Positions 6,101-63,305 of a stretch of DNA of 64,000 bases are shown in pieces (positions within the stretch are counted from its first letter, which is position 1; the number at the start of each line of letters is the position of its first letter). The stretch spans positions 19,966 through 83,965 of the forward strand of contig JABIDS010000009.1 in NCBI GenBank assembly GCA_018651605.1. Direction: 5' to 3'. The notes under the pieces were generated by a model that did not search any database, was not told the DNA's origin, and worked only from the letters and a program-made list of their open reading frames with translations. The translations under genes were made by a program, and so were the position numbers. This DNA comes from an archaeon (lineage in GTDB: Archaea; Nanobdellota; Nanobdellia; Pacearchaeales; GW2011-AR1).

Positions 6101-7975
6101 GATGGAGTTGATGAGGATTGGTTTGGAGATGAGACAGGGTGTGGGGTTGGGGAGTGTGCTGCGGTTGGGGAACAATTATGTATAAATTCTCAAAAAACAA
6201 ATACATGTCAAGAAGGTGTTGCAGAGTTAGATGATAAGAGTTGTGATGGGAAGGATAATGATTGTAGTGGTGATGCTGATGAAGATTATATTTCTTTAGT
6301 TACTGATTGTGGTATTAATGAATGTTTGAGAATCGGGATAACATCATGTTCTAATGGAGAGGTTTTGGATTCTTGTGTTGTTGGAACTTCTGAACTAGAG
6401 ATTTGTGATGGTAAGGATAATGATTGTGATGGGAAATTTGATGAGGGTTGTGATTGTTTATTAGGTGATAGTCAACCTTGTGGGAGTGATGTTGGTGAAT
6501 GTGTTGTAGGTTTGCAGACTTGTAATATTAATGGTAATTGGGGAGATTGTGTTGGTGGTCAGGGTCCTGTAGAGGAGATTTGTGATGGTTTGGATAATAA
6601 TTGTGTTGGAGGGGTTGATGAAGGTGGAAATAGTTTATGTGATGATTCTATTGATTGTACTGATGATGTATGTAATGGTGTGAGTGAATGTTCTTATACT
6701 GAGAATCATGGTCTTTGTGAGAATAATTTATTTTGTGATGGAGAGGAAAGATGTAGTATTGATGAAGAGAAATGTATTTCTATAAAGACTCCTAATTGTG
6801 AGGATGTTTTTTCATGTACTGATGATTCTTGTGATGAGGGTTTGGATAAGTGTGTTAGTGATGAAAATTCTGGGAATTGTTTGACTGGGCAGATTTGCGA
6901 TGTTCTTAATTTTGTTGCTCCAACTGGTTGCGGTTATGTTGAGAATTGTGTTGATAAAGATGGTGATGGGTTGTATGATTATGATGAGAATTTTTGTTCG
7001 GAGGGTGTTGATGAGTGTTCTGGAACAAATAAGGGTTATTTTGTTAGGAATCCTTTTAAGTTGAATGATTATTTGCCTAAGGTTGGAAAGTTTAATATTC
7101 CTTCGGTGAATGCAGGAAATATTTTGAATTTTGAGAATTTTAGTGTTGAGTATAATGGGACTAAAATTAATTTTGTTGATAATGTTAGTTTGGTTAAAGT
7201 GAATGCTAGCGGTTGTTTTGAGGTTATTAATTTAAGTGAGATTGTTTTGTTTGAGGATGGTAAGTTGAGTGTGAATACGAGTTTGATGGATGGATTTGAT
7301 AAGCCTGCACTGTTGAAGTTTAGTGGAATTAATTTTGAGAACCCTCAGATTTATAGGGATGATGTTAAGTGTGTTGATTGCGAGATTATTAATTATTCTA
7401 AGGGAGAATTTTTAGAGGTCATGATTACTGGTTTTGTTTCTTATGATGTTAAGGAAGGGGCTTATTGTGGGGATGGTGTTTGTAATGGTGGTGATAGTTG
7501 TTCTAATTGCGTTGTTGATTGTGGGGTTTGTTCTGCAGGTGAGGGAGGTATTCTTGGAGGAGGTTCTGGGAGTTCTGGTGGTGGTGGTGGTGGGAGTCCT
7601 AGTGGTCCTAGTGGTCCAAGTGGAGGAAATCCTAGTGGTTTAAATATAAATCAAAGTAGTGTTGTAAATGTTTCTTATCCTAGTAGTTGTGTTGAAACTT
7701 GGTCTTGTAAGGATTGGAGTGAATGTAATGAGAGTGTTCAGAGAAGGGAGTGTTCGGATGTTAATGATTGTGGGAGTGAGGAGTATAAGCCTATTTTGGA
7801 GAAGGAATGTGTTGAGAAGAATAATGTTATAAAACTTGCTGTTGCATTTTTTATATCTTTTTTTGTTTCAGGAATAGTTGCTGTTTTGATTGTTGTTTAT
7901 TTTAAGATTAGGGATAGAAGGAAGAGTGTTATTAGAGATTTGCATAAGAATGGTTATCATGGGTTTAAGTGGTGA
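143..7975 (+). CDS. giant cysteine-rich cell-surface protein (2610 aa) with MopE-like CDxxDNDCDG metal-binding-type repeats, LamG/ConA-like blocks and C-terminal TM anchor
   Basis: Uninterrupted 7.8 kb ORF. N-terminal hydrophobic segment LTYILFVLLFVLVGFLFSF. Hundreds of Cys in repeated CxxxC and CDNKDNDCDG..DE units. Two blocks with a LamG-like signature (IYIDGVL...VDDVKIWNRALSSSEV). Gly/Ser/Pro linker GGGSGSSGGGGGGSPSGPSGPSGG. C-terminal TM LAVAFFISFFVSGIVAVLIVVYF followed by basic KIRDRRK. Confidence 0.85.
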   Translation: MVLEKKDVIGHIELTYILFVLLFVLVGFLFSFDYVVEEFVKEGVESEGVGVLEGGVEVGVGSEGSGLGRDGFDGDEKKSGFFKRIFEGLFGKEEVLFSPPSIDSVSPLNGLSKTGEEQIFTIEYSDPEGWEDLIYGYVIFGADSSDSRIFLEYRHTTKFGLVNDKGIMTYHCDPESDNFLSNSYVKLDCSKSFVSGSGDTMTLTLALTFKEPFIGNWKILLRTKDISDKDKGKWVPMGDWDVEEGEVIIVPVKPLPQMRALYGGINELRIGEGGIDAYTDMFRSYGINTFITKHSGLRNNFIYADRYPNSPENFYESILDQAEWAEQKGFVFFPIIDFVHRVNDPDDLDGDEITVSSITDNYVVFSDGSAGSQVTPFDETYWDYLTDIAVRLARLSENYGKYRVDGLMFDFELYKSVEFGEPRKFDRTFGFEDSTFNNYLVDRGLVELNSPPKESNQRAERYDWLIDNGRWTDYYSYLEDTIEKLAENMKSEVRKVNPDFVLGFYPTPEPLYLIDILDGFGSEDDPAVLLDTFTYAISYMGYSYGGEVVPTGISRNRLPSGYFDVTKRYHPERNKPAYAYYLGGTIAAAYDPLDYENKLYNIGNDGNGYWIYQATFFLNGFRPDLPGWGLPCNNGIRSFNCPNADAHQGAVDHYLNEIKNANLRLGWEPCVLSNGGDEICDNKDNDCNGKVDDGDLCDNGNYCDGVETCSSGSCVDGSAVVCNDGIDCTDDFCDEVNDKCDVDESSSSCGCPNGLDSECSNDDVCDGIESCNTETLVCIDDVDLDCDGSDVCIDYSCDAVLGCQESFNSADCNDGVDCTLGDKCNLGDCSGTPYDSECEFFWQSCNPVSGCEQASCKDCKDCDTWLGSCSYNECHNECDWGDGCYFEKDPLGDDCVPLSEGCSSVGSCGDYSVEECVSDLCDKAPVGGNGCELGENRFVIMSFSQYLDDFADEWHQLVQQTYIQNEKVINKIYIDGVLRNTEKFEDAGGLVNNYANLKLAVDLNGEVDDVKIWNRALSSSEVLDDNNGVLVSDSLIAHYNFNEGSGVGVVDSVGDNDGVLNGDAVRIDGGIIDIGTSGYIEIKETSVMDISLTDEYTISGRFKLSSEETAGSRYFWSDYSWMNSGFIAIIFPRDQKFYYYNTHKDLSVCVDASYCGDGVCGFESGENCGGCEEDCGCSGETPHCSSGNCVECERPSDCDDGLYCNGVESCVDGSCVDGSVINFDDRVGCTMDSCDEVNDVIVNVVDDGLCQNGDWCDGVESCDAVLDCQDEVDPDCSDVYSCSVDSCSEGSVVGDNLGVCDYDTSGCGCLVDGDCDDSNDCTDDFCNAQRECDKTNKINGFVCDDGNLCTEDDKCSVGVCSGSARDCSSLSDQCNDGVCDLDDGLCKAEVKINGLSCDDGLFCSVSDVCGNGVCGGSSRDCSSFNDQCNDGVCDDVLNLCKADAKVNGLDCDDEVDCTVEDKCSFGDCKGRVDDNECEDWESCNPVSDCGQVTCSSCKECDSWLSGCDYNECHNECDWGDGCYFDSKFGENCVSLVDGCSSVDSCEDYSSEECVSDLCGKAPSSNGCELDGDDCVAVSYCGDGVCDVGSEDCSSCVEDCSCSGNVDLKQCSSGSCVECLEVDDCDDDKSCTNDLCTNNVCVFPEIDSDGDGYGACLGIGFDCDDGDRDVNPGVEESCNNVDDDCDGLTDESLSQATSCGVGLCLGNVGVETCSLGSWIGDTCDEDDGAVDEVCNNADDDCDGSTDEGCACSLGDTQPCGSDVGECVAGSQVCDINGIWGDCVGGQGPVVEICDNKDNDCSNGIDDGLSRGTSCGVGACSGNSGVETCSAGVWGSDTCDDKAGAVSDANCNGVDDDCDGSKDEDYVSVDTSCGVGECLGNSGSWSCVSGNEVDSCDEYAGKVEESCDDETGFDGLDNNCDGNVDLDCESICDKDGDGYTNNLICLPACLIYGWNCLSLDCDDSNVNINPREDELCNGIDDDCDGGTSDGVDEDWFGDETGCGVGECAAVGEQLCINSQKTNTCQEGVAELDDKSCDGKDNDCSGDADEDYISLVTDCGINECLRIGITSCSNGEVLDSCVVGTSELEICDGKDNDCDGKFDEGCDCLLGDSQPCGSDVGECVVGLQTCNINGNWGDCVGGQGPVEEICDGLDNNCVGGVDEGGNSLCDDSIDCTDDVCNGVSECSYTENHGLCENNLFCDGEERCSIDEEKCISIKTPNCEDVFSCTDDSCDEGLDKCVSDENSGNCLTGQICDVLNFVAPTGCGYVENCVDKDGDGLYDYDENFCSEGVDECSGTNKGYFVRNPFKLNDYLPKVGKFNIPSVNAGNILNFENFSVEYNGTKINFVDNVSLVKVNASGCFEVINLSEIVLFEDGKLSVNTSLMDGFDKPALLKFSGINFENPQIYRDDVKCVDCEIINYSKGEFLEVMITGFVSYDVKEGAYCGDGVCNGGDSCSNCVVDCGVCSAGEGGILGGGSGSSGGGGGGSPSGPSGPSGGNPSGLNINQSSVVNVSYPSSCVETWSCKDWSECNESVQRRECSDVNDCGSEEYKPILEKECVEKNNVIKLAVAFFISFFVSGIVAVLIVVYFKIRDRRKSVIRDLHKNGYHGFKW

Positions 7976-7989
7976 TTTGGTTGGGTTGG

Positions 7990-8370
7990 ATTTTCCACCA
8001 CCCACGGAAAGCCGGTTTCACCTTTCCCTTTCCGTGCCGTTGCAGTCTTAAAAAGTTGTTAGAGGGTTTATTTATTCAGAGGAGTTTTCTTTGGTTGTTG
8101 TTAAGAGATTGGTTTGGTTATAGATGGGAAAGGTGTTTTGTAGAGAGTTTAAGATTTAGGAGATTCAGAGAATTAAAAATTCTCTGACTTAGAAAAATAA
8201 GCTATAAGCCCTATTATTTTTCTAATTTCAGTATTTAGCGGAGCGCCCTGACTAAGTCGGGTGCGAGAGCGATATAAAATAAGTTATGAGCTGAAGGAGA
8301 ATGAATCATGGATGGAATAAATGAACCGAAAGAGAATGAATCTATGCGAGCGATAGTGAATGAATCTAAT
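7990..8370 (+). repeat. interspersed repeat family A, copy 1 (structured intergenic element, ~380 bp, contains 9-bp-arm palindrome and an inverted GAC-loop hairpin)
   Basis: Shares blocks (cGGAAAgccg; caCTTTCCCTTTCC; ttgttagaGGGTTTATTTATTCAGAGgag; ATAAGCCC; aaaTAAGTTATGAGC; GAATGAATCTAtGCGAGCG) with copies at 11735-11885 and 56345-56630. Palindrome cagagaatt/aattctctg at 8166-8188. Segment gcggagcgccctgactaagtcgggtgcgagagcg resembles the reverse complement of the hairpins at 45560 and 46799. Confidence 0.7.
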
Positions 8371-8377
8371 CTTTTAA

Positions 8378-11631: not shown

Positions 11632-11734
11632 TTTAAGGTATTTAATCGCTTTGCGATTAAGGTGTTATTTACTTTAATCATTTGGATTAAAGTTATTTTA
11701 AATTTTTAAGGATTGTTGTTGTGTGGTTTGTTTT

Positions 11735-11885
11735 GGGATCAATTCCCCTGGCGGAAAGCCGTGCTTCGCACTTTCCCTTTCCTCCCTTTTGTCTTGGTAA
11801 ATTGTTAAAGGGTTATTTTATTCAGAGAATCTATAGATTCTCTGACTCGTAAAAACGAGCCATAAGCCCCATCGTTTTTCCGATG
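11735..11885 (+). repeat. interspersed repeat family A, copy 2 (short version, with perfect 10-bp-arm palindrome)
   Basis: Blocks gcGGAAAGCCG, CACTTTCCCTTTCC, ttggtaaattgttaaaGGGTTATTTTATTCAGAG, palindrome cagagaatct/agattctctg (11823-11844), then gactcgtaaaaacgagccATAAGCCCC. Same order as in copy 1. Confidence 0.7.
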
Positions 11886-12069
11886 AAGATGAGTTTTCCT
11901 TGGTTTTTAAGGATTAATAGGTATTAGAAGGTTTATTTCATATCGATTTACCCTTTGAAAGGTGATTTAGTATATAAGTGTTGCGTTACTATTTTATAAT
12001 TAGTATATATTTGTGTTTGTGGAAGATTTGATATGTTTGGATAATCTTTTTATAATAGGTTTTCTTTAG

Positions 12070-19361: not shown

Positions 19362-19470
19362 GGGGTGTTGGGAAGGTTAAGTAACTTGGTTCGCTTTTGC
19401 TCACAACTTATTTTATGGTTCAACTGCCGGCTTTCGCCTGGCAGTTTCTCTAATTTTTCTTAATATTGTG
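19362..19470 (+). ncRNA. candidate structured ncRNA / repeat (family B, copy 1): GGGGTGTT…TTGGTTCGC…hairpin aactgcc[GGCTTTCGCC]tggcagtt + T-tract
   Basis: ~85% similar to 27330-27470. Hairpin 19422-19446 has fully compensatory stem changes relative to the second copy, with a conserved loop GGCTTyCGCC. Followed by taattttt. Confidence 0.5.
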
Positions 19471-19563
19471 TAAATTTTAGAAATTAGGAGGATGAGTTTT
19501 ATCCTTAAGTTAAGATTCTATTTTAGCAATCAGATTTAAAAACCTCTTTATCTAATTAATAGT

Positions 19564-23773: not shown

Positions 23774-23829
23774 AGATTAATTTATTTGAAACCAAAGATT
23801 AAAAAAGGCTTTTTTTCTTATTAATTTAT

Positions 23830-23904
23830 GGCTTGTTAGCTCAGTCTGGTTAGAGCACTAGACTCTTAATCTAGGTGTCGGGAGTTCAAATCTCCCACAG
23901 GCCA
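23830..23904 (+). tRNA. tRNA-Lys (anticodon CTT), 75 nt, no encoded CCA
   Basis: Manual cloverleaf: acceptor GGCTTGT/ACAGGCC; D arm GCTC-AGTCTGGTTA-GAGC; anticodon arm CTAGA-CTCTTAA-TCTAG; T arm GGGAG-TTCAAAT-CTCCC; discriminator A. Confidence 0.85.
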
Positions 23905-23975
23905 TTTATATCTTAACACTAAATCTAAGATGTAGAAAATTATGAAGGATTAAATACATTTAGATATTTTGTAGC

Positions 23976-24719
23976 CTACTTGATCTTCTCACCTGACTCC
24001 CAAAGCATATAAAAATATTTTTTTAAACTATCAGCTAAAGAATCATTTTTAATCCATAGTGATAAATATTTATCTCCTTCAACAATCCTTATAGTAACAT
24101 CACTATCATCAATAATAGTAAATTTTGTAGTAATAAGAGGAATTTTTCTAATTTCAGCATTAATTTTCTTCCAGACTTTTAATTTATCGCTAGTTGCCTC
24201 CTCATCACTTGTTAAAATCTTAATCTTGACATTATCTTTAGCATTTTTTTCATAAGAATCGATATGAGGTTTATATGTTGAAAGTTCAGAAATTGTCAAC
24301 CATTCCCTTCTAACATTCTTATGAAGACTCACAGAAAGATTAAGATAATTCTTATAACCTTCAACAATTTTTATTTTATCAATCACTTCATCCTTGTTAA
24401 TCATAGCAAGTTCCCCTAATTCATTCATAATCCTGTCAGAATTATTAATAAAATTATCTAGTTCTTTTTCTTTTTTTTCTTTTAAGTAATTAAAGATTAT
24501 CTTAGGTGCAACTGAAACGAACTTTTTCGGACTACCGTCATACTTTTTTACAAATCCTTTGGCAGTTAAAGACTCTAATACTGAATATATCTTACTATTT
24601 GGAATTAAAGATTCCTTTGATATCTTATATGCAGTTGATATCCCATTTTTTATTAAATATATGTATGCCTTTGATTCATTAGTTGTCAAACCAAATTGCT
24701 TTAATTTCTCCATAATCAT
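23976..24719 (-). CDS. TrmB-family transcriptional regulator
   Basis: N-terminal wHTH LKQFGLTTNESKAYIYLIKNGISTAYKISKESLIPNSKIYSVLESLTAKGFV matches the TrmB signature. 247 aa. Confidence 0.7.
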   Translation of the reverse strand: MIMEKLKQFGLTTNESKAYIYLIKNGISTAYKISKESLIPNSKIYSVLESLTAKGFVKKYDGSPKKFVSVAPKIIFNYLKEKKEKELDNFINNSDRIMNELGELAMINKDEVIDKIKIVEGYKNYLNLSVSLHKNVRREWLTISELSTYKPHIDSYEKNAKDNVKIKILTSDEEATSDKLKVWKKINAEIRKIPLITTKFTIIDDSDVTIRIVEGDKYLSLWIKNDSLADSLKKYFYMLWESGEKIK

Positions 24720-24772
24720 AACTACCCAAGGGGGTTACTATTATATAAATATTTCTATTTATTATTTTTTTC

Positions 24773-25462
24773 ATGTCAAAAAAACTTATAAACCAACATG
24801 AAGAATTAAAAGAACAAAATATACGTAAACCACTTTATCCTTGGGCTCCAGAAATATATAATAATATGATGAACCCAATTTCACTTGAACCAATTAAAGA
24901 AAGAGCATGGAATCACTTTCTTTGGAACCTTGGTTTAACAATTACCTGGCCTATTACTGCACCCGGTTCATTTATTTGGGCCATGCAAAGAAATCTAAGA
25001 GGTAAGGGGCATTTTTCTGATGGATATATTGTTCTAGGATGTTTAACAGCACCCTACATCTTAGCTACAGAATCTAAAAGTTTCTTAACCAAAAGAACTG
25101 TAGCATTAAAATTTTCAAATATTGATGAATTATTAGAAGAAGAAACTATTTTAACAAAACCTGATGGAATAAATCCGGGGATTCGTTTTAGTACAAGAGA
25201 TAGAGGTAAAGACAGCCCTTATAGATTTGGAGACTCTTCTTCGAATACTGATAGATATGGATTTCTAGATTTAATTTTCCCAGATAACTTAGCTTTAGAT
25301 GATTTTTCAGCAATGTATTATGCAACTGCTAATAGAGAAAATCCTGGAAATCTGTATTTAGATTGTGAATATTTTCTAAAAGTAAATCCAGATGATACAA
25401 GAAGACTTTATGAAGAATTTGAAAAAGTGAGAAAACCTGGAGCAAATGATTTAAGAAAATAA
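24773..25462 (+). CDS. hypothetical protein
   Basis: 229-aa ORF between the two tRNA-Lys copies. No recognisable motif. Confidence 0.45.
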   Translation: MSKKLINQHEELKEQNIRKPLYPWAPEIYNNMMNPISLEPIKERAWNHFLWNLGLTITWPITAPGSFIWAMQRNLRGKGHFSDGYIVLGCLTAPYILATESKSFLTKRTVALKFSNIDELLEEETILTKPDGINPGIRFSTRDRGKDSPYRFGDSSSNTDRYGFLDLIFPDNLALDDFSAMYYATANRENPGNLYLDCEYFLKVNPDDTRRLYEEFEKVRKPGANDLRK

Positions 25463-25603
25463 GTAAAGTTAGTACTATCAACTGTTTAAGATAATTTTTT
25501 CTAAAATAGACACTGTGTCATATATAATCCAAAACTCTTAATCCAACACATATATCAATAAGAAAATTAAAAAACCATAAATACCTCATAAATTCATACT
25601 CAT

Positions 25604-25678
25604 GGCTTGTTAGCTCAGTCTGGTTAGAGCACTAGACTCTTAATCTAGGTGTCGGGAGTTCAAATCTCCCACAGGCCA
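25604..25678 (+). tRNA. tRNA-Lys (anticodon CTT), second identical copy
   Basis: 75/75 identical to 23830-23904. Confidence 0.85.
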
Positions 25679-25782
25679 TTTATGGCAGAGATTTTCACTC
25701 CAAGGAGTTTCCATAAAGGATGACTCAAAGGTTATTTGAGCCGCAAATCTCATCAGGCCATTTAAATTAATGTTAATAATTA

Positions 25783-26229
25783 TTAATCTCTTGAAATTAT
25801 TGAATTGAAGTCTAAATCATATGTTTTTCTTTGAATAACCTCAGAAGTAGTATCCGGATGTTTCTCCCTTGCATCTGAATAAATTACAGATAATTGATTC
25901 ACAAATTCATCATAATTTAATACTATTTCAGAACCTATTATATTTGGTACTCCAGATACAAAAGATAAGAATTGAAAATGATTTCTATAATTATCATTTC
26001 CTCTCATAGCTTCTTCAAACTCATTAGGAGAATTTCCGATAGTATCAACTGATTGAAGGACTTTATGAGCAAATTGTCCCACTACGGTTTCAATAGATTC
26101 ATTAATCCTTCTAATCTCTGATTCTTGTTTTTGAGTTACCATACGGATAATCTTCAGATATTTACTATATAAATCCTTCGATTTTAACAAATATACTAAA
26201 AAATAATCACTGTGCCATATATAATCCAA
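25783..26229 (-). CDS. hypothetical protein
   Basis: 148-aa ORF immediately followed by a tRNA-Lys 3' fragment. Confidence 0.4.
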   Translation of the reverse strand: MDYIWHSDYFLVYLLKSKDLYSKYLKIIRMVTQKQESEIRRINESIETVVGQFAHKVLQSVDTIGNSPNEFEEAMRGNDNYRNHFQFLSFVSGVPNIIGSEIVLNYDEFVNQLSVIYSDAREKHPDTTSEVIQRKTYDLDFNSIISRD

Positions 26230-26231
26230 TA

Positions 26232-26273
26232 CTCTTAATCTAAGTGTCGGGAGTTCAAATCTCCCACGGGCTA
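26232..26273 (+). other. tRNA-Lys 3'-half fragment (anticodon loop to acceptor 3' strand; att-like remnant)
   Basis: ctcttaatctaagtgtcgggagttcaaatctcccacgggcta vs tRNA ctcttaatctaggtgtcgggagttcaaatctcccacaggcca. Preceded by a ~40-bp direct repeat (cactgtgYcatatataatccaaWactcttaatc) also present at 25507-25548. Confidence 0.75.
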
Positions 26274-26294
26274 TTTTTATTTTTAGAAATATTA

Positions 26295-27329: not shown

Positions 27330-27470
27330 GTAGCGGGGTGTTACTACTTGTTTTTTGTTGGATTTTGGGAGATTGGTTCGCCTTCGGCTCACGGCTTATT
27401 TTATGTCAGATTGGATGGCTTCGCCAACCCAATCTTCTAATTTTTTTGATAGTGTGAATATTTTATCTAG
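27330..27470 (+). ncRNA. candidate structured ncRNA / repeat (family B, copy 2): hairpin agattgg[ATGGCTTCGCCAAC]ccaatct + T-tract
   Basis: Collinear with 19362-19470: GGGGTGTT; TTGGTTCGCCTTCGGCTCAC; CTTATTTTATG; hairpin 27408-27435 with covarying stem; ctaattttttt. Confidence 0.5.
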
Positions 27471-27559
27471 ATATGAAAGGATGAGTAGATTGATTGTTAT
27501 AAGAATTTAGTTTTTTGTTGTTATGAGTGTTTGGTTTTTGAAATTTTATTAATAATAGT

Positions 27560-35601: not shown

Positions 35602-38112
35602 ATGCCTCCTAAGAAAAAAGTAAACCCTGAAGCTGTTGAGCAGAAAGAATTTCGGGTTTTTGATCCTGCGAATGTGAAGAAGAGTGTTGAAGTTGCTGCT
35701 AAGCCTAAGCCATCTGTTGAGGATTTGCAAACTGTTGAAAAAGTTGGAGATGCTGAAAAGATAGAGAAGGAATTGAAGAAACGATCATCTACTGGAAAGA
35801 AGAAGGTTAGTAAAAGAAAGAAAAAACCTGCTACGAAGAAGGCTGTGAAGAAACCTGCGGTGTTTAAGGAAAAGGCTTTGAAGAAAGATGGTTATGTTTT
35901 TGTTGTGACTGAAAAGCCTCAGGCGGCTGATAAGATTGCTGCGGCGCTTTCTGAAGGTAAGGCGCGGAAGGTTGCGAATCGGGCAAAGGTTTCATATTAT
36001 GAATTTGAGAGGGGGGGTAAGAGGGTTGTTGTTGGATGTGCTGTTGGACATTTGTTTACTATTTCACAGAATGTTAAGGGGGCAGATTATCCTATTTTTG
36101 ATATTGGGTGGTATCCTAATTCTGCTGTTAAGAGGGGTGTTGATTTTACTCGGAAGTATTTTGATGTTATTAAGAAATTAGTTACTGGGGCGAGTGAGAT
36201 TGTTATTGCTACGGATTTTGATGTTGAGGGAGAGGTTATTGGTTATACTGTTATGAAATATATTGCGAATCAGAAGGATGCTTCGCGGATGAAGTTTAGT
36301 TCTTTGACTGCTGGTGAGTTGCAGGATTCTTTTGATAATCGGGCGAATCATATTGAATGGGGGCAGGCGATTGCTGGGGAGACTCGGCATTTTTTGGATT
36401 GGTTGTATGGTATTAATTTGAGTCGGGCTTTGATGAATTCTATTAAGACTACTGGTAAATTTGCTGTGATGAGTATTGGGCGTGTTCAAGGTCCTGCGTT
36501 GCATATGATTGTTGAGAAGGAGAAACAGATTCAAGCGTTTAAGCCAACTCCTTATTGGCAAATTTTTTTAGAAGTGAATGATGGTAAGAATAAATTAGAA
36601 GTTAAACATAATCGAGATATTACTAAGAAGGAAGAGTTGGGGAAGTTTGAGAAATTGAAGGGTGGGAAAGGTGTTGCGAAGACTACGAAGAAGAGTCAAG
36701 TGATTACTCCGCCTGCTCCGTTTGATTTGACTTCGTTGCAGACTGAGGCGTATAAGTTTCATGGGATTACTCCTGTTAATGCTTTGTCTGTTGCGCAAAA
36801 ATTGTATTTAGCTGGTTTGATTTCTTATCCTAGAACTTCTTCACAGAAAATTGGAGATTTGAAAAGTGCTGAAAAAGTTTTGAAGCTTCTTGAGAAAAAT
36901 CATAGTTCTCTTGTGAAGGAAGTTAGCCGTAAAGTTCCTGTTGAGGGAAATAAGTCTGACCCTGCGCATCCTGCGATTATTCCGACTGGGACTCATAGTA
37001 ATAGGTTGAGTGATTATGATGAGAAGATTTATAATTTGATTGTTAAGAGATTTATTTCTTGTTATTGTGCAGATGCTGAGTTGGAGAATAAGAGAGTTAA
37101 TGTTGATGTTTCAAGTGGTTTGAAGTTTGCTGCTCGTGGAATGGAGGTTAAGAAAAGTGGTTGGATGAAGGTTTATCCTACTAAGATGGAGGCAAAGGAG
37201 TTGAAGGATATGGATGGAGAGGTTAATATTGATGAAGTTAAGATTGAGGAGAAGGAGACTAAGCCTCCGAATCGGTTTTCTCCTGCGTCTATTGTGACTG
37301 CTCTTGAGAAAAAGAATTTAGGGACAAAGGCTACTCGTGCGAATATTATTGAGACACTTTATGATAGGAATTATGTTAAGGGGAAATCTATTACTGCTAC
37401 TGAGTTGGGGATTCGATTGATTGATTCTTTGAAAAAATATTCTCCTGTGATTATTGAAGAGGAATTGACTCGTGAGATTGAAAAAGATATGGATAATATT
37501 CGGAGTTCTAAGCATGATTTGGATGTTAAAAAGGGGAAGGTTATTGGTAAGGCTGAAGATGCTTTGACTAAAATTTCTAAGGATTTTAAAAAGAATGAGG
37601 TTGTGATTGGGAAGGAGTTGCGAGGGGCGAATGAGGCGGCGTGGGCGCAGGAAAAAGAAGATAATAAATTATTGAAGTGTACTGGTTGTGGTAAAGGTTT
37701 TTTGTCTCTTAGATATACGCCAAGATTTAAGAGTTATTTTGTTGGATGTGAAACTTATCCTGATTGTACTCAGACTTATCCTTTGCCTTCTGGATGTGTT
37801 GTTAAAAAAGTTGAAGGTAAGATGTGTGAGGAATGTGGTTGGCCAATGTTAATTAGGTATAAGCCAAGTAAGAGGCCATGGGTTTTTTGTTTTAATCCTA
37901 AATGTCCAACGAGGTTGGAGTTGGATTTGAGTGGGAAGGCGAAGAAGAAGGGGGCGAGGTATGTTGGTGGGAAAACGAAAACTGCGGAGAGTAAGGGTGT
38001 GGCTGATATAGGTGTTAAAGAAAAAGGGGAGGATGTTGGGGTTGAGAAGGGTGATGGTGTTGGGGTTGGGAGGGGTGGAGATGTTGAGGTTAAAAAGGTT
38101 AAGGAGAAGTGA
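35602..38112 (+). CDS. topA: DNA topoisomerase IA with Lys-rich N-terminal extension and C-terminal zinc ribbons
   Basis: Toprim block VIATDFDVEGEVIGY. Type IA core. C-terminal CTGCGKG…CETYPDC…CEECGW…CFNPKCP zinc ribbons. Gly/Val-rich tail. Confidence 0.85.
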   Translation: MPPKKKVNPEAVEQKEFRVFDPANVKKSVEVAAKPKPSVEDLQTVEKVGDAEKIEKELKKRSSTGKKKVSKRKKKPATKKAVKKPAVFKEKALKKDGYVFVVTEKPQAADKIAAALSEGKARKVANRAKVSYYEFERGGKRVVVGCAVGHLFTISQNVKGADYPIFDIGWYPNSAVKRGVDFTRKYFDVIKKLVTGASEIVIATDFDVEGEVIGYTVMKYIANQKDASRMKFSSLTAGELQDSFDNRANHIEWGQAIAGETRHFLDWLYGINLSRALMNSIKTTGKFAVMSIGRVQGPALHMIVEKEKQIQAFKPTPYWQIFLEVNDGKNKLEVKHNRDITKKEELGKFEKLKGGKGVAKTTKKSQVITPPAPFDLTSLQTEAYKFHGITPVNALSVAQKLYLAGLISYPRTSSQKIGDLKSAEKVLKLLEKNHSSLVKEVSRKVPVEGNKSDPAHPAIIPTGTHSNRLSDYDEKIYNLIVKRFISCYCADAELENKRVNVDVSSGLKFAARGMEVKKSGWMKVYPTKMEAKELKDMDGEVNIDEVKIEEKETKPPNRFSPASIVTALEKKNLGTKATRANIIETLYDRNYVKGKSITATELGIRLIDSLKKYSPVIIEEELTREIEKDMDNIRSSKHDLDVKKGKVIGKAEDALTKISKDFKKNEVVIGKELRGANEAAWAQEKEDNKLLKCTGCGKGFLSLRYTPRFKSYFVGCETYPDCTQTYPLPSGCVVKKVEGKMCEECGWPMLIRYKPSKRPWVFCFNPKCPTRLELDLSGKAKKKGARYVGGKTKTAESKGVADIGVKEKGEDVGVEKGDGVGVGRGGDVEVKKVKEK

Positions 38113-38120
38113 ACGGTTGT

Positions 38121-38228
38121 TGCGGTGAAGATTTAATTGGTTGCGGTCTCCCAAGCCTGACTTTGTCAAGGCTCTCCGACTTGCAGTTTTGATAATGTTG
38201 AATATTTTATCATGAGGTTATGAGTGGT
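38121..38228 (+). repeat. hairpin repeat family C, copy (stem agcc-TGAC-UUU-GUCA-aggct) followed by conserved aatattttatcatgaggttatgagtggtt box
   Basis: ~80% similar over ~90 bp to 41040-41140, with compensatory stem substitutions. The TTTTATC box could be a TATA element. Confidence 0.65.
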
Positions 38229-38272
38229 TTAGTAAATAAATATTTATATATGTAATTAGGATGATTATTTAA

Positions 38273-38773
38273 ATGGAATCTAATCTTGCAACCATTTATG
38301 TATGGGAAAAAAGAAATTTGGATGTAGATAATTTATTATTTGTTCTTGGAGGTAAAAAGGCTCCAACATATACTGAACTTAAATCACAATTTGATCGTAA
38401 TCATAGAAAACCTATTTCACTTAGGCATTATTCAAATGAATTTGAAATTTATCAAAGTATAGCAGGAACCGAACCTCTTGTTAAAGATCCTCATTATACT
38501 GGAGATGTCTCTCCTTTTTTAACTTTTGATTTAGAAAAAAGATTGAAAAAATTAGAGTTGTCATTACCTGAACATGAACTTCAATTTAATCCTCGTGAAA
38601 GCAATGATTATAAAAGTGTAGATTTAGCTAGGGTTGGAGGATTAGCATTATATTTGGTTGAAAGTTTGAGTGCTAAGGATGTTTTAGCAGTTAATGGGAC
38701 AGATATTGAAAATGGGGTAATCTATGCTTCTCCTGGAATTGAAAGAAAAGTTTCTGATTCTATTCTTATTTGA
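38273..38773 (+). CDS. hypothetical protein (166 aa)
   Basis: A-rich coding strand (foreign-like). Flanked on both sides by copies of the attttatcRtgagRttatgagtggtt box. Confidence 0.45.
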   Translation: MESNLATIYVWEKRNLDVDNLLFVLGGKKAPTYTELKSQFDRNHRKPISLRHYSNEFEIYQSIAGTEPLVKDPHYTGDVSPFLTFDLEKRLKKLELSLPEHELQFNPRESNDYKSVDLARVGGLALYLVESLSAKDVLAVNGTDIENGVIYASPGIERKVSDSILI

Positions 38774-38803
38774 TTGAAATTTTATCGTGAGATTATGAGT
38801 GGT
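38766..38803 (+). repeat. partial copy of family C promoter-like box (gaaattttatcgtgagattatgagtggtt)
   Basis: 27/30 identical to 38198-38227 and 41118-41145. Confidence 0.6.
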
Positions 38804-38849
38804 TCTTTAATATAATTAAATTTATAAGCCTAGAAAATGCACATAGGTT

Positions 38850-39350
38850 ATGTATAATAATGAAGAACTAGGGATTATTGGAAGAGCTAGAGTGCATGGA
38901 TTTGCATCTTATCTATGTAATGAATATGGTTCTAAGGGTATGTTGGATAGGTCTTTTAATTCTGAACAATTGCCTGACAAAGATTTTTTTGAGAAAAGGT
39001 ATAATCATATGAAGAATAAAAAAAGTGATTTTGATATTACTTATTTAATAGAACTTCCTGAAGAATCTGTAAATCCTCTTAAGGATGAACAAGAGAAGTG
39101 GAAAAATTTGTCTCCTAGGGTTGGTTGTTTTTTAGATACATTAGATTATTTGATTGAAGAATATGATTCTGTAAAAGAGGATTGTGAAGGTGATAGGAAA
39201 ATGGTTAGTAGGGTTATGAATGAATGGTGGGAATTGTTGCAAGAATGGAATGCTCTTTCAAATTCTTATAAGGTTAAAGTAGAGATGGTTTATGATGCTT
39301 TAAATGAGCGAGGGATTCATAATCTTAATTTTGAAGTGTTTGATAAATAA
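38850..39350 (+). CDS. hypothetical protein (166 aa)
   Basis: ORF with A-rich composition. Confidence 0.45.
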   Translation: MYNNEELGIIGRARVHGFASYLCNEYGSKGMLDRSFNSEQLPDKDFFEKRYNHMKNKKSDFDITYLIELPEESVNPLKDEQEKWKNLSPRVGCFLDTLDYLIEEYDSVKEDCEGDRKMVSRVMNEWWELLQEWNALSNSYKVKVEMVYDALNERGIHNLNFEVFDK

Positions 39351-39395
39351 CCCAAACTTTATAATCTTCTTTTCCTTGTTATTTTTAGGTGATTC

Positions 39396-40217
39396 ATGAC
39401 ATATGTAATAAAATCTACAGGTGAGAAAGAGAGGTTTGATAGGAATAAAGTTCGGAAGAGTATTCTTCATGCTGGGGCATCTCCGGAGTTGGTTGATAAG
39501 GTTTTGGGTGTGATTGATAAGAAGAGATATGATGAGATTCCGACTGAAAAGATTTTGGATATTGTTTTGAAGTCTTTGGCACGGAATAAGGGGATTGCAG
39601 ATAGATATGATTTGAAGAGGGCGATTATGCAGTTGGGGCCTTCAGGTTTTCCGTTTGAGAGATTTTTTGCAATGGTTTTAAAGAATTATGGATATGATGT
39701 GAAGGTTGGGAGTGTGTTGAAGGGGAAAAATATAACTCATGAGATTGATGTTTTTGCTAAAGGTAAGAATGGTTCTTTTATGGTTGAATGTAAATATCAT
39801 AATAAATGGGGGATTCATACTAAGGTTAAGATTCCGCTTTATGTTTATGCTCGGTTTCTTGATTTGAAGAAATATTTTGATGAGCCTTGGATTGTTACTA
39901 ATACTAAATGTACCCCTGATGCTTTGAATTATGCTAGAGGTGTTAAGATGAAAGTTACTTCTTGGAATTATCCTAAGGGAAGTAGTTTGAGGGATTTAAT
40001 TGAAGGTAAGAAACTTTATCCTATTAGTGTTCTTCGTGGGGTTAGTGTTAGGACTAAAGAAAAGTTATTTGAGTCTGATATTTTTTTAGTTAAGACTTTG
40101 GTTGATTTAGATATTTATGAGTTGAAGAAGAAGACTAAATTTAGTAAGAGATATTTGAGAAGGATTATTGGGGAGGCTAAGGATGTGTTGGGTGTTGGGG
40201 TTGTGAAGGTTGGTTAG
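39396..40217 (+). CDS. ATP-cone domain protein fused to Mrr-like (PD-(D/E)xK) restriction-endonuclease domain
   Basis: N-terminal ATP-cone (MTYVIKSTGEKERFDRNKVRKSI…). Central FERFFAMVLKNYGYDV…EIDVFAKGKNGSFMVECKY resembles the Mrr catalytic core (FE…Y.V…D.GIDV…QCK). Confidence 0.55.
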   Translation: MTYVIKSTGEKERFDRNKVRKSILHAGASPELVDKVLGVIDKKRYDEIPTEKILDIVLKSLARNKGIADRYDLKRAIMQLGPSGFPFERFFAMVLKNYGYDVKVGSVLKGKNITHEIDVFAKGKNGSFMVECKYHNKWGIHTKVKIPLYVYARFLDLKKYFDEPWIVTNTKCTPDALNYARGVKMKVTSWNYPKGSSLRDLIEGKKLYPISVLRGVSVRTKEKLFESDIFLVKTLVDLDIYELKKKTKFSKRYLRRIIGEAKDVLGVGVVKVG

Positions 40218-40273
40218 TAGTGTAGTTATATCATTACAATAATCCTTAAAACCTATTATAACTTTTTTAAAGT

Positions 40274-41032
40274 ATGGATAATATAGAATCTCAAACTAAG
40301 GCTGTTACAAATAAAATTACAACTGGAAGTCAGGATTTAAACATTTTTCTTCAAGGAGGTTATGAGAAAGGAATAATAACTTTACTTTATGGTCCTGCGG
40401 CCTCTGGAAAATCAAACATTGTAACATTGGCTGCATGTAATCAAGCTAAAAAAGATAAAAAGATAATCTTCATAGACACAGAAGGAAGTTTTTCAGTTGA
40501 TAGAGTTAATCAGATGTCAAATAATTTGCCAGAACAAATTTTAAAAAATATTATAATTCTTAAGCCAACTAATTTTAAGGAGCAACAAAATTCTTTTATA
40601 ACTTTAGCAAATGAATTAAAAAAATCAGAAAATATTGGGTTGATAATTGTGGATAGTATAACTATGCTTTATAGATTGGAATTTGCAGAAGCAAGAAAAA
40701 AGGGTTTGGAAGAAATACAAAATATAAATAGTGATTTGGCTAGGCAGATGAAGGCACTTTATGAAGTTGCGAGAAAACGAGATATTGCAGTTTTAGTAAC
40801 CTCTCAGATATATTCAGGATATCTTAGTGAAGAAGATTGGCCTGCAGGAAAGCAGGCTAAAACAAATGTTGTTGGCGGGGATATATTGAAGTATTGGAGT
40901 AAATGTATAATTGAATTGGAAAATAAAAATGGGCGGAAAAAAGCGATTATTCAGAAACATCGTTCATTGCCTGAGAAAACTTTGAACTTTGAGATTGTTA
41001 ATGAGGGTGTGCAGAAAAGGGGTTGGTTGTGA
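40274..41032 (+). CDS. RadB/KaiC-like RecA-superfamily ATPase
   Basis: Walker A LLYGPAASGKSNIVTLAA. Walker B LIIVDSITMLY. ~250 aa with RadB-like organisation. A-rich (foreign-like) composition. Confidence 0.65.
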   Translation: MDNIESQTKAVTNKITTGSQDLNIFLQGGYEKGIITLLYGPAASGKSNIVTLAACNQAKKDKKIIFIDTEGSFSVDRVNQMSNNLPEQILKNIIILKPTNFKEQQNSFITLANELKKSENIGLIIVDSITMLYRLEFAEARKKGLEEIQNINSDLARQMKALYEVARKRDIAVLVTSQIYSGYLSEEDWPAGKQAKTNVVGGDILKYWSKCIIELENKNGRKKAIIQKHRSLPEKTLNFEIVNEGVQKRGWL

Positions 41033-41039
41033 ATTGTTA

Positions 41040-41140
41040 CATGGGCTGGAGGGTTATTGCTGGCTCCCGAGTCCGACTTCGTCAGGACTCTCCACCTTGC
41101 ATATTGAAATTGTGAATATTTTATCGTGAGGTTATGATAG
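41040..41140 (+). repeat. hairpin repeat family C, copy (stem gagtcc-GAC-UUC-GUCA-ggactc) + gaatattttatcgtgaggttatga box
   Basis: Pairs with 38121-38228 to bracket the four-gene cassette. Hairpin 41069-41090. Confidence 0.65.
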
Positions 41141-41351
41141 ATTGATTTTTTAGAAAGAACTTTTAGGAAATGATTTATTTAGACTATTCACTATTTTTTC
41201 TGCACTTTGCTGTGAAAGATTTGTTTTTAGAATTTTAATATGATTCATAAGATCTCTAGAACCATCATAAAAACTCTTCTTAGCATATCCATATTCTCCT
41301 TTTTCATCGGCATAGATTAAGTAATCATTAGTTGTAATTTTATTTTTAGAA

Positions 41352-45534: not shown

Positions 45535-45640
45535 GTGGGGGTGGGGTTGTGTCGCTCTCGCGCCTGGACAAGTCCAAGGCGCTCCGCTATTGTATACTGA
45601 AATCTTGTTAAAGTGTATCTTTATGGAGATGAGTTTTCTT
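45535..45640 (+). repeat. hairpin repeat family C-related element (gtggggttgtGTCGCTCTCGCgcctggacaagtccaaggcgCTCCGCTattg)
   Basis: Prefix and suffix shared with 46780-46830. Imperfect GC-rich hairpin 45560-45582. Sits in the intergenic region downstream of the GT2 gene. Confidence 0.55.
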
Positions 45641-45705
45641 TTGTTGATTATATGTTTGTTATACAAATATTTTTAAAGTGATTGTATTAGGGAATTACAT
45701 ATACT

Positions 45706-46114: not shown

Positions 46115-46933
46115 TTATTCATCTTCGTTTTCATCATCATCCTCAGGAACTATTTCGCTTGTTCCATCTGCTTTTTTTTGTAAGTGGAAATAGTCGAAGA
46201 AGTTGTCGCTTAATTTTAGTTCTTTGGTGTGTCCGATTCTTTTTGCTATTACTAATCCTGTTTCTATGAAATGTTTGATGTGTTCGTATGCTTTGTTTCC
46301 TCTGATGTTTATTATTACTGATTGTTTTACTGGTTGTTTGTATGCAAGGACTGCGAGTGTTTCTTGTTCGGCTTTTGTGAATTCTACGTTTCCTGTTGCG
46401 AGTTTGTTGATTAGTCCGATATATTCTTCTTTGACATCCATTTTGTATTTGTTTTTTTTGTTTACAATTTGGATTGAAGAGGTGTTTTGTGAGTATTGGT
46501 TTGTGAGTTTTTCTAGAAGTTCTCTTAGCATTAATGGATTAATGTCTGTTAGCATGATTAGTTCTTGTATTGTAAGGTAACGAGCTGAGAGAAAAAGTGC
46601 GGCTTCTATTTTCTTTAGGTTTTCTGTTTGGTCGAGTTGGTCGAGTTCTTGAGCTGTGGTGGAGGTGAGATGTTCTGAAGTTGTTGGTGAAGGGGTTATG
46701 GGGGTTGATGGTAAAGGGGTTATGTGGGTTTTTGAGGTTGATGGTGAAGGGGTTATGGGGGTTGATGGTAAAGGGGTTATGTGGGTTGCGTCGCTCTCGC
46801 CGATGACTTCGTCAATCGGCTCCGCTGTTGCAGTCTTAGTATCTGTTAGATTTTTATCGTTTTGTTGGTGGGTTTCTTTTGTTTGTTGATTTAGGGGATT
46901 TTCTTTTGGGGGGTTATTCTCTTCTTTTTCCAT
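46115..46933 (-). CDS. scpB: ScpB-like segregation/condensation protein (tandem wHTH); N-terminal ~100 codons overlap a GC-rich repeat element and may not be coding
   Basis: IEAALFLSARYLTIQELIMLT…EQETLAVLAYKQPVKQSVIINIRG fits the ScpB double wHTH. The N-terminal region is Thr/Pro/Ser low complexity, encoded by a 2x57-bp tandem repeat plus the hairpin at 46799-46820. Confidence 0.6.
   Translation of the reverse strand: MEKEENNPPKENPLNQQTKETHQQNDKNLTDTKTATAEPIDEVIGESDATHITPLPSTPITPSPSTSKTHITPLPSTPITPSPTTSEHLTSTTAQELDQLDQTENLKKIEAALFLSARYLTIQELIMLTDINPLMLRELLEKLTNQYSQNTSSIQIVNKKNKYKMDVKEEYIGLINKLATGNVEFTKAEQETLAVLAYKQPVKQSVIINIRGNKAYEHIKHFIETGLVIAKRIGHTKELKLSDNFFDYFHLQKKADGTSEIVPEDDDENEDE
46650..46850. 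repeat. GC-rich tandem repeat (2 x ~57 bp: ggtgaaggggttatgggggttgatggtaaaggggttatgtgggtt) followed by family C hairpin gccgat-GAC-UUC-GUCA-atcggc
   Basis: Direct visual repeat. GC content well above local background. Hairpin prefix gtgggttgcGTCGCTCTCGC shared with 45540-45560. Confidence 0.65.
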
Positions 46934-49574: not shown

Positions 49575-49650
49575 TTGTTTGTTGAAGAGGTTTTGTAGCT
49601 GACTTCATCAGGCTACTTCATAAAATTCTGATAATACTAATTTTCTGATA
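49575..49650 (+). repeat. hairpin repeat family C variant (gtagc-TGAC-UUCA-UCAggctac)
   Basis: Same GAC-UUC-(G/A)UC core as the hairpins at 38144, 41069 and 46799. Intergenic between convergent/tandem minus-strand genes. Confidence 0.45.
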
Positions 49651-56332: not shown

Positions 56333-56344
56333 TTTTCTGTATTT

Positions 56345-56630
56345 CCCTCCCCACGAAAATCCGTTCCTTGCGTCACTTTCCCATTTTCTTCCTTTTGTTT
56401 TGGTAAGTTGTTAGAAGGTTTATTTTTTCAGAGGAGTTTTTCTTTTTGGTTTCGTTTGAGTGCTAAGTTGGTTTTGTGTAGATTTTAAAAGTTGGGAGAT
56501 TTTAAGAAAATTGGGTTAACGAAGTTTCCTAATTTGACATAAAATAAGTTATGAGCGGAGCGAATGAAACTATGGGAGAAGGATAAGTGAGTGAAGCGAA
56601 TGAATCTAAGCGAGCGGAGCGAGCGTTGAA
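56345..56630 (+). repeat. interspersed repeat family A, copy 3
   Basis: Shares cacGAAAAtccg; CACTTTCCCaTTttcttCC; ttggtaagTTGTTAGAAGGTTTATTTTTTCAGAGGAGTTTTTC; gttttgtgtagatttt…gggagatt; ATAAAATAAGTTATGAGCGGAGCG; GAATGAATCTAAGCGAGCG with copy 1, in the same order. Confidence 0.7.
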
Positions 56631-56644
56631 CTATTAATTTTTAT

Positions 56645-56690
56645 TGATTCCCCCTCATCCCCCCAATCTAAATCGGGGTTTGTTAATATT
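56645..56690 (+). repeat. diverged duplicate of the dGTPase gene 3' end (direct repeat with 57346-57395)
   Basis: ttgattccccctcatccccccaatctaaatcggggtttgt vs ttgattccctttcatcagcccaatctaaatcaggatttgt. On the minus strand it encodes …NPDLDWGDEGES vs genuine …NPDLDWADERES. Confidence 0.65.
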
Positions 56691-56749
56691 ATCATTACTA
56701 AGTAGTAACTTATAGATAAATTTATAAAGCCTATAATTGTCATAATTTT

Positions 56750-63071: not shown

Positions 63072-63146
63072 TGAGCCTGTAGCTCAGCCAGGTTAGAGCA
63101 CTACTCTGATAAGGTAGGGGTCCCAAGTTCAAATCTTGGCAGGCTC
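63072..63146 (+). tRNA. tRNA-Ile (anticodon GAT), 75 nt
   Basis: Acceptor GAGCCTG/CAGGCTC; D arm GCTC-AGCCAGGTTA-GAGC; anticodon arm CTACT-CTGATAA-GGTAG; T arm CCAAG-TTCAAAT-CTTGG; discriminator A. Confidence 0.85.
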
Positions 63147-63305
63147 ATAAACTAAACCAAGATTTGAAAATCCAGAAAATTTTTAATTTTCTGGTCCATT
63201 CAAAAACCTATGGGTTTTTTGAAGGTCTTGACAGGATCATAAACTAAACCAAGATTTGAAAATCCAGAAAATTTTTTGAAGGTCTTGACAGGATCATAAA
63301 ATGCT
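63135..63305 (+). repeat. direct repeats of the tRNA-Ile 3' end plus downstream ~40 bp (cttgRcaggMtcataaactaaaccaagatttgaaaatccagaaaatttt x2, third truncated copy)
   Basis: aatcttggcaggctcataaactaaaccaagatttgaaaatccagaaaatttt (63132-63183) vs ggtcttgacaggatcataaactaaaccaagatttgaaaatccagaaaatttt (63225-63276), and again ggtcttgacaggatcataaa (63283-63302). Confidence 0.7.

Follow-up and report, generated by a model that had tools for sequence, protein, structure and literature searches.

Genes and repeats behind topA

The 64-kb stretch of DNA described here (contig JABIDS010000009.1, positions 19,966 to 83,965; hereafter the window) comes from a DPANN (Woese-/Pacearchaeota-like) archaeon. Orthologues of its DNA topoisomerase I, TopA, at 50-79% identity are found solely in metagenome-assembled genomes labelled Woesearchaeota, Pacearchaeota or Nanoarchaeota. 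Behind topA lie four open reading frames (ORFs), two for hypothetical proteins (ORF1 and ORF2), one for an ATP-cone-Mrr nuclease and one for a RadB-like ATPase. These protein calls were made in a first-pass annotation and agree with the Pfam domains and with the TIGR02237 equivalog. The same annotation read the four genes as a defence or recombination cassette bordered by two hairpin repeats. The repeats themselves are real, but they are two copies of a family of palindromic elements that is dispersed through the window (Table 1), and it is this family that is treated here.

The two repeats share 80.7% identity over 83 nt (38141-38223 versus 41057-41137, E 2.9e-16 within the spacer set), as expected from the roughly 80% first noticed. 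The hairpin at 38.1 kb reads AGCCT-GAC-TTT-GTC-a-AGGCT and that at 41.1 kb GAGTCC-GAC-TTC-GTC-a-GGACTC. Both have the bulged A on the 3' side, and their outer stems differ at two pairs which are both compensated, so that the stems differ and still remain complementary, just as had been claimed. In the 38.1-kb copy the hairpin (38153-38174) has C/T-rich internal loops, CTCCC and CTCC, and the box of the tail is at 38204-38223. There are exactly three occurrences of this box, ATTTTATCRTGAGRTTATGA (at 38204, 38779 and 41118, where shuffles expect 0.10), that is, behind both hairpins and, as also noted in the first pass, once more in a partial copy between ORF1 and ORF2. It had been called TATA-like. 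Each of the four genes has a promoter-like box of its own (YTTTAWAWA) 24-33 nt before the ATG, and since the repeat box lies farther away, 50-70 nt upstream of ORF1 and ORF2, it is not the TATA box of these genes. It is instead a part of the tail of the family's elements.

Table 1. Element copies and genes in the window (CM R1 and CM R2, covariance models described in the text)
Feature	Position	Strand	Evidence
G-type copy after the 2610-aa gene; 9-bp stem, TTC-triloop mini-hairpin, family tail	7990..8107	+	nhmmer tail E 1.6e-11; fold; 78% to 11752-11827
c8k, B-type, rad50 3' flank; hairpin 8243-8264	8200..8309	-	CM R1 51.7 bits; 68/78 identical to post-RadB copy in L029
G-type copy, divergent spacer between mre11 and next + gene; tail interrupted by double-hairpin module 11820-11880	11738..11908	+	Profile search, fold
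c19k, full-length: 5' arm, hairpin 19423-19445 (GGC/GCC inner stem, bulged T), tail	19386..19500	+	CM R2 24 bits; strict structural scan; sequence
c27k, full-length, between two - strand genes, antisense to both; hairpin 27409-27434, box GTGAATATTTTATC	27370..27500	+	CM R2 23 bits; blastn links to 19.4k, 56.5k, 41.1k; sequence
TopA (DNA topoisomerase I), conserved anchor gene	35602..38112	+	Pfam Topoisom_bac 1.5e-108; orthologues in 10 loci
c38k, A-type, TopA 3' flank	38134..38240	+	CM R1 49 bits; CM R2 27 bits; nhmmer full-length E 1.5e-22; fold
ORF1, 166 aa, rare uncharacterised family	38273..38773	+	2 matches in 5.8e9-protein search; 25 representatives in 1.84e9
Tail-only (box) copy without hairpin, between ORF1 and ORF2	38774..38826	+	81% to 38198-38248; 92% to 41113-41137; exact box match
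ORF2, 166 aa, confined to this species	38850..39350	+	Sole match is its own near-identical sequence
ATP-cone + Mrr_cat nuclease + AF1548-like_C protein (ORF3)	39396..40217	+	Pfam
RadB (ORF4), inverted relative to all relatives	40274..41032	+	TIGR02237 equivalog, 202 bits vs cut-off 172
c41k, RadB 3' flank; hairpin 41069-41090, box 41118-41137	41049..41154	+	CM R1 53.5 bits; nhmmer E 2e-21; 81% to c38k
c45k, between divergent promoters; hairpin 45560-45582, apex GGA-CAAG-TCC	45539..45654	+	CM R1 35 bits, E 7e-8; nhmmer E 5e-24
scpB; N-terminal extension holds c46k and tandem repeats	46115..46933	-	TIGR00281 pass at residues 107-253
c46k, inside scpB, antisense strand; hairpin 46799-46820	46776..46894	+	CM R1 52 bits
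c49k, degenerate hairpin copy between two - strand genes; hairpin 49595-49616	49589..49639	+	CM R2 25 bits; sequence
Composite spacer: G-type (56338-56445, +) and B-type (hairpin 56509-56534, -; 5' arm repeats to 56616)	56338..56620		Profile, blastn, CM R2

A dispersed family of elements

Family members were detected with a pattern search, a covariance model of the core (CM R1), a broader hairpin model (CM R2), nhmmer profiles of the full-length element and of the 3' tail alone, and blastn. The pattern search and the two covariance models find nine main-type hairpins in 64 kb, and the profile searches three further hairpins with the same 3' tail (~7990-8107, 11738-11908 and 56338-56445), here called G-type, in which a longer stem surrounds a mini-hairpin whose triloop is again TTC and behind which the family tail follows. 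A strict structural pattern matches 4 times in the window as against 0.26 times in shuffles. The elements measure ~50-130 nt and have a modular build: a 5' arm (GATTCATTCGCTCCGCTCAT..TTATTTTATRT), which need not be present, then the hairpin, then a tail rich in G and T (TTGCAGTCTTA ... GTGAATATTTTATC ... GGAGATGAGTTTTCTTT). All but one of the twelve copies (nine main-type and three G-type) are in spacers, on both strands. Modules of the family occupy about 10 of the about 30 spacers of at least 100 nt, in both orientations, and in three mosaic spacers (7976-8377, 11632-12069 and 56333-56749) several modules are found together, again in both orientations.

This distribution bears directly on the supposed cassette borders. 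The same type of element is found at 8.2, 19.4, 27.4, 45.6, 46.8, 49.6 and 56.5 kb, with related forms at 8.0, 11.8 and 56.3 kb. The two repeats around the four genes are the 3'-flank elements of TopA and RadB, and the bracket that they form is due to chance.

TT(G), a frequent trinucleotide on this G/T-rich strand, precedes all five A-type copies. Relative to the G-rich strand, the copies of the window are oriented 7:2 and those of all loci 8:6, which is no usable bias. A DNA-repair regulon, suggested by the elements behind TopA, RadB and Rad50, was dropped as an explanation because copies also follow the gene for a surface protein and genes of unknown function. Small ORFs starting from the ATGAGT of the tail were rejected as coding since neither their length nor their sequence is conserved.

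Some copies have additional repeats beside them. Short units ending in GAATGAATC, the 5' arm of the B-type, are tandemly duplicated at 8271-8352, 56536-56616 and 27371-27407, and the arm of c8k (GATTCATTC...TTATTTTATATCG) is partly duplicated up to ~8352. There is also a separate, conserved double-hairpin module with two copies (8163-8222 and 11820-11880), of which the one at 11.8 kb interrupts the tail of an element. It consists of a perfect 9-10 bp palindrome, CAGAGAAT..ATTCTCTG, followed by another hairpin, whose loop GCYATAAGCCCYA is conserved and whose stem covaries.

Hairpin structure and covariation

In the main-type hairpin a variable outer stem of 5-8 bp is combined with an inner stem of 3 bp, which C-G closes. 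The loop is a TTN triloop, with four nucleotides instead in three of the copies, and on the 3' side there is a bulge of 1-2 nt. In an alignment of 13 hairpins, nine from the window and four from other loci, 92.6% of the stem cells pair, and two-sided changes are seen in 9 of the 11 stem pairs (32 cells). None of 500 shuffles reaches the observed pairing and covariation values, and in shifted registers pairing falls to 13-40%. The GAC/GTC core, at first thought to be invariant, is so among the closest copies only; in more distant copies it covaries as well, with GGC/GCC, AAC/GTT or GGA/TCC in its place.

Strong covariation is also what would be expected if the hairpin and its T-rich tail were an RNA element of the host, a module of the 3' untranslated region (3'-UTR) that defines or protects the ends of mRNAs. 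Such a module would act through termination, processing or exonuclease blocking, with an RNA-binding protein reading the triloop, the bulge and the C/U-rich loops. T-runs are found 40-70 nt downstream in most tails, and a homologue of RNase J is encoded in the window. The composition of the stems fits this less well. The 121 stem cells contain 111 Watson-Crick pairs, one G-U, seven A-C or C-A and two A-A, and a single G-U beside seven A-C/C-A mismatches is unusual for an RNA read on this strand. As the A-C cells would read G-U on the complement, either strand, as DNA or RNA, could be the selected form. T-runs lie 10-70 nt away from the stems, never directly behind them, and a scan for bacterial-type intrinsic terminators (G+C-rich stem, T-run within 0-2 nt) flagged no copy in 37.5-47.5 kb. 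At the gathering score, Rfam 15 finds three tRNAs and nothing else in the whole window, and permissive Rfam scans of two copies gave chance-level matches only. C/D-box and H/ACA RNAs, K-turns, selenocysteine insertion sequences (SECIS), template and variable repeat (TR/VR) pairs of diversity-generating retroelements, CRISPR solo repeats and integron attC sites were each considered and dropped, their defining motif being absent from the sequence. An origin of the hairpins from tRNAs or split tRNAs was likewise rejected, as ARAGORN shows only three normal tRNAs in the window.

Position relative to genes and intrusion into coding sequence

Four of the main-type copies lie in sense at the 3' end of a gene: c8k (after rad50), c19k, c38k (after topA) and c41k (after radB). 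Four others are antisense, three of them in spacers (c27k, c49k and the copy at 56k) and one inside a gene (c46k), and c45k is between divergent promoters. The arrangement thus speaks both for and against a 3'-UTR module. In its favour, six sense copies, including one G-type copy and two of a relative, are placed 37-114 nt past stop codons or overlap the stop, and the 3' end of RadB carries an element in two genomes despite the inversion between them. Against it, equally many copies are antisense, between divergent promoters or inside a coding sequence, about 55 of about 60 genes have no element at all, and near-identical copies at non-orthologous sites in different species (see below) are not expected from the vertical descent of UTRs. 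Taken together we regard a host RNA element as rather unlikely.

An orientation that is independent of the neighbouring genes could also mean that each copy is a small RNA gene with its own transcription unit, whose CUCYC/CUCC loops pair with G-rich targets such as the Shine-Dalgarno-like GGAG. A TATA-like motif, TTATTTTAT, is present 5' of the hairpin in B-type and full-length copies, T-runs follow downstream, and the conserved unpaired CUCC would, judging from the sequence, correspond to an anti-Shine-Dalgarno core. The TATA-like motif is, however, only ~8-12 nt before the hairpin, which would put the start site inside the stem, and c41k and c46k do not have it. C/U loops are missing from c19k, c27k, c49k and the 56k copy, one copy lies within a coding region, and neither the whole-window nor the permissive Rfam scans found a relative. 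Independent small RNA genes are therefore an improbable explanation.

In two cases the element has become part of a protein. The only start codon upstream of the ScpB domain of scpB is at 46933, and c46k is for this reason read in frame, as residues ~14-53 of ScpB, its hairpin being residues 38-46. No alternative start codon is found before residue 127, and the ScpB domain, which starts at residue 87-107, is intact. The N-terminal extension of ~100 residues (46580-46933, - strand) contains the element copy and 24/48-nt tandem repeats encoding HITPLPSTPITPSPST-like units; orthologues such as that of locus L002 do not have it. The second case comes from the closest of the relatives that bear elements. 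There, at 1933-1965 (- strand) of locus L029, the gene for the ATP-cone/Mrr nuclease takes its final five codons (EVSRA) and its stop from an element copy. This copy begins directly behind the shared KDVLGV of the protein, and the nuclease orthologues of the window and of locus L004 have other C-terminal ends, with no element there.

Copies in relatives and in public data

The exact core pattern is very rare. It gave six matches in metagenomes, of which one is real, with a perfectly paired stem (L018), and one a partial relative (L021); scans of viral contigs with the pattern gave nothing real. Among the relatives fetched via TopA and RadB, copies are present at two places only. One is L004, with a single copy between radB and rpoL, and this is the only locus with an element in the RpoL-RadB spacer. 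The other is L029-L031 (2.7 kb, from a genome with a RadB 78% identical to that of the window), with two main-type copies and one G-type copy. L001, L002, L008 and L035-L040 have none.

The copies of L029 match window copies at other sites. Its copy after radB is 87% (68/78) identical to the window copy after rad50, and its copy after the nuclease gene is 86% (62/72) identical to the window copy after topA. At the 3' end of the nuclease gene, where L029 has a copy, neither the window nor L004 has one. Copies that one genome has and another lacks at orthologous sites, their entry into the ends of genes, and conservation between non-orthologous sites are together the trace that a family copied to new sites would leave. 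Contigs of the same species from other samples are 99.9-100% identical and have an identical arrangement, and no insertion polymorphism can be observed between them for this reason.

The four enclosed genes

The cassette reading has some evidence on its side. Direct repeats stand at both ends, and each forms a hairpin in which one base is extrahelical, as attC sites do. ORF1 and ORF2 are specific to the lineage, and relatives vary in what lies between TopA and RadB. On this reading, attC-like or other recombination sites would move the four genes together, as a module for defence or recombination. Besides the dispersal of the repeats, synteny decides against the cassette reading, and so does composition (see below). 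In every relative examined radB adjoins RpoL, near TopA, and the ATP-cone/Mrr gene is found in the TopA-RpoL neighbourhood in three genomes; in the L004 and P0005 genomes it is on the topA strand there. Comparing relatives for presence or absence of the cassette had been proposed as a check, and it refutes the reading, because RadB and the nuclease gene are conserved residents of this neighbourhood. What varies is the slot between topA and radB. It is without genes in L002 and in the P0011 genome, holds small ORFs only in the P0012 genome, two small ORFs and the nuclease gene in L004, and in the P0005 genome, besides two small ORFs and the nuclease gene, a PLD nuclease and a helicase. In the window, ORF1 and ORF2 are the genes of this variable slot, and the part of it that they occupy, from TopA to the nuclease gene, is hypervariable. 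There is no contig from which the segment is missing or in which it is exchanged, the neighbourhood contains neither an integrase nor a recombinase, and the R''/R' consensus of attC (RYYYAAC...GTTRRRY) is absent from the sequence. The proposed pairing of a nuclease with an ATPase for defence fares no better: PADLOC gives weak partial matches only (mad8 25 bits, CARF_PDDEXK 19 bits, JetC 15 bits), and RadB is a housekeeping equivalog. The four genes are not a mobile or defence cassette, but two resident genes and two slot genes, and borders that mobilise them as a unit are very improbable. A link of the hairpins to recombination or mobility, which had also been proposed, is possible in a general sense; as sites of cassette exchange they find no support.

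ORF1 and ORF2 match no family beyond noise in Pfam, PHROGs, NCBIfam or PADLOC, and a profile of the ORF1 family has no relative in Pfam or PDB. AlphaFold models of the two are unusable (pLDDT 32 and 38). That they are paralogues was rejected despite their equal length and duplicated upstream regions. The one closer homologue of ORF1, 52% identical, is found in L027 beside a tRNA gene, a NUDIX gene and a gene for a ParE-like toxin. Its promoter region is conserved, and a near-identical upstream stretch (GTTTAGTAAATAAATATTTATATA) is kept there at 95-160, which is unusually strong conservation for non-coding DNA. In the P0005 genome the slot between topA and the nuclease gene is filled by a PLD-family nuclease and a large AAA_11/AAA_12 helicase, possibly a defence pair, which are unrelated to ORF1 and ORF2.

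Inversion of radB and strand composition

In seven TopA loci radB is on the strand opposite topA. In four further genomes rpoL and radB are co-directional; in three of these radB also converges on topA, and the L039 locus stops short of topA. Only in the window does radB have the orientation of topA, and the gene has kept both its conserved promoter (ATCCTTAAA) and its 3' element there. RadB was turned round by a local inversion that carried promoter and 3' element along. No inverted-repeat partner for c41k was found at the other breakpoint of the inversion.

The composition of the genes had been called foreign-like, and for radB this can be explained by strand bias. The window has a G+C content of ~32%, and its + strand is strongly enriched in G and T. 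On the coding strand, codon-3 GC skew is about +0.8 to +1.0 in + genes and about -0.5 to -0.8 in - genes, and the AT skew runs in the opposite direction. The codon-3 skews of radB in the window are +0.69 and -0.03, compared with +0.9 and -0.5 in long-resident + genes and -0.68 and +0.62 in the L029 orthologue, which is on the C-rich strand. The odd composition of RadB is thus due to its inversion within a genome of extreme strand skew. Its intermediate skews are what an inversion of intermediate age, half re-equilibrated, would give.

The cumulative skew is monotonic across the whole 64 kb, an extreme strand asymmetry. Relatives have such asymmetry too, with the opposite polarity at topA and radB in L004 and L002, which implies a larger inversion or a different direction of replication there. 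Several other features of the window are worth noting. The gene for tRNA-Lys(CTT) is present twice (23829-23905 and 25603-25679, 100% identical), with a copy of its 3' half at 26231-26283, and the genes between the two copies have near-zero skew and include a TrmB-like regulator. The region 23829-26283 looks like one or two elements integrated at a tRNA gene; no integrase domain was found. Just downstream of tRNA-Ile, at 63134-63300, two stretches are duplicated in tandem almost exactly, one of 51 nt (96%) and one of 29 nt (100%). At 143-7975 a gene encodes a Cys-rich protein of 2610 residues with many diverged internal repeats, probably a surface protein, and a G-type element lies behind it.

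Comparison with known palindromic repeats

The family resembles the repetitive extragenic palindromes (REP) and bacterial interspersed mosaic elements (BIME) of enterobacteria and pseudomonads, which are associated with REP-associated tyrosine transposases (RAYT). Both consist of short palindromes, made imperfect by a bulge or a mismatch, that occur in many copies, in spacers and often at gene 3' ends, in either orientation, and in mosaic spacers together with other motifs. Neither has terminal inverted repeats (TIRs) or target-site duplications (TSDs), and in both the sequence is kept across copies at non-orthologous sites. The present family differs in being archaeal (DPANN), in stems that vary far more between copies than the REPs of one genome do, and in longer elements with a shared tail of 60-70 nt. 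It has no GTAG/CGTC tag at the foot of the stem, the feet being flanked by CTCYC/CTCC or by TTATTTTATGTC/TCTCTAAT, and no RAYT gene is among the window ORFs scanned with Pfam.

Rickettsia palindromic elements (RPE) are similar in another respect. They too are palindromic repeats, of ~100-150 nt, in a reduced genome, and are found both in spacers and in frame inside protein genes, as here in the N-terminus of ScpB and, in L029, in the C-terminus of the ATP-cone/Mrr nuclease. They differ in that there is no sequence relationship, that only two cases are seen here, an in-frame one in the window and, in a relative, one at the end of a gene, and that no conserved encoded peptide is evident.

The ends of IS200/IS605 elements and of their miniature derivatives, the palindrome-associated transposable elements (PATEs), share with the family a subterminal imperfect hairpin and an extrahelical base, again without TIRs and TSDs, and the TT(G) before the five A-type copies could be a target preference, though it is common on this strand. 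In contrast to them, the family has one hairpin per element instead of two, and no TnpA or TnpB was found among the window ORFs scanned. Integron attC sites, too, are hairpins that keep their structure while their sequence varies, and an extrahelical base marks the strand in them as well. Here, however, the neighbouring ORFs contain no integrase domain, and there is neither an array nor a set of R''/R' core sites; the copies lie scattered instead of one behind each cassette, and four genes come with only 2 hairpins. From classical MITEs (miniature transposable elements with inverted repeats) the family is set apart by the lack of TIRs and of target-site duplication at the element ends.

A probably mobile family in a reduced archaeal genome

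The family probably consists of selfish or duplicative, non-autonomous palindromic repeats of the REP/BIME/RPE kind that are restricted to this lineage. It would spread, or be copied, as DNA, like REP/BIME, Rickettsia palindromic elements and the hairpin-ended derivatives of IS200/IS605. Copies settle chiefly in spacers, often right behind stop codons, and can also enter gene ends and turn into coding sequence. The complementarity of the stems could be kept by a trans-acting factor that reads the folded single strand, or by an RNA or DNA hairpin that is useful to the host at gene ends.

Several points weigh against this explanation. No transposase or HUH/Y1 gene is present among the window ORFs scanned, and neither terminal inverted repeats nor target-site duplications were seen at the ends of c19k, c27k and the A-type copies or at the junctions; for these reasons we infer the mode of spread rather than observe it. 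The uniformity of the same-species contigs, mentioned above, also counts here, and so does the amount of sequence examined, since 64 kb of the host genome and a few kb of two other element-bearing genomes limit the census. A functional RNA could account for the conserved loops and the strong covariation. A host function at 3' ends would also fit the six sense copies right after stops; in the window these are the ones behind the giant gene, rad50, TopA and RadB, in L029 those behind RadB and the nuclease gene. To judge from bacterial REPs, selfish elements and elements with a host role at 3' ends are not mutually exclusive.

It is doubtful, though conceivable, that the family is the first archaeal (DPANN) counterpart of the REP/RAYT or IS200/IS605 type or, alternatively, an undescribed protein-binding RNA motif at mRNA 3' ends. 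If such a counterpart were at work, a trans-acting enzyme for single-stranded DNA would read the bulged triloop hairpin and copy the element beside TT(G). The reduced genome would then be under active remodelling, which would have given ScpB a new N-terminus and the nuclease a new C-terminus and would seed small inversions like the flip of RadB.

The kind of element is already known, as a census reports 105 MITEs per Mb for a Woesearchaeal genome, among the densest in archaea (PMC11602168), and in-frame palindromic elements are known from Rickettsia (PMC10969869). To our knowledge this particular family has not been described previously. For annotation, two warnings follow: direct repeats around genes should not be read as cassette borders, and outliers in strand skew should not be taken for foreign DNA in genomes with an extreme replication-strand bias. 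The genomes of DPANN archaea are tiny and tightly packed, and one would not expect structured, covarying repeats that fill their spacers to be neutral filler. Should the family be a signal in host RNA, it would give a handle on the biology of mRNA 3' ends in organisms that cannot as yet be grown alone. If it is mobile, it shows that selfish palindromes can persist in reduced archaeal genomes and create protein termini there, as they do in Rickettsia.

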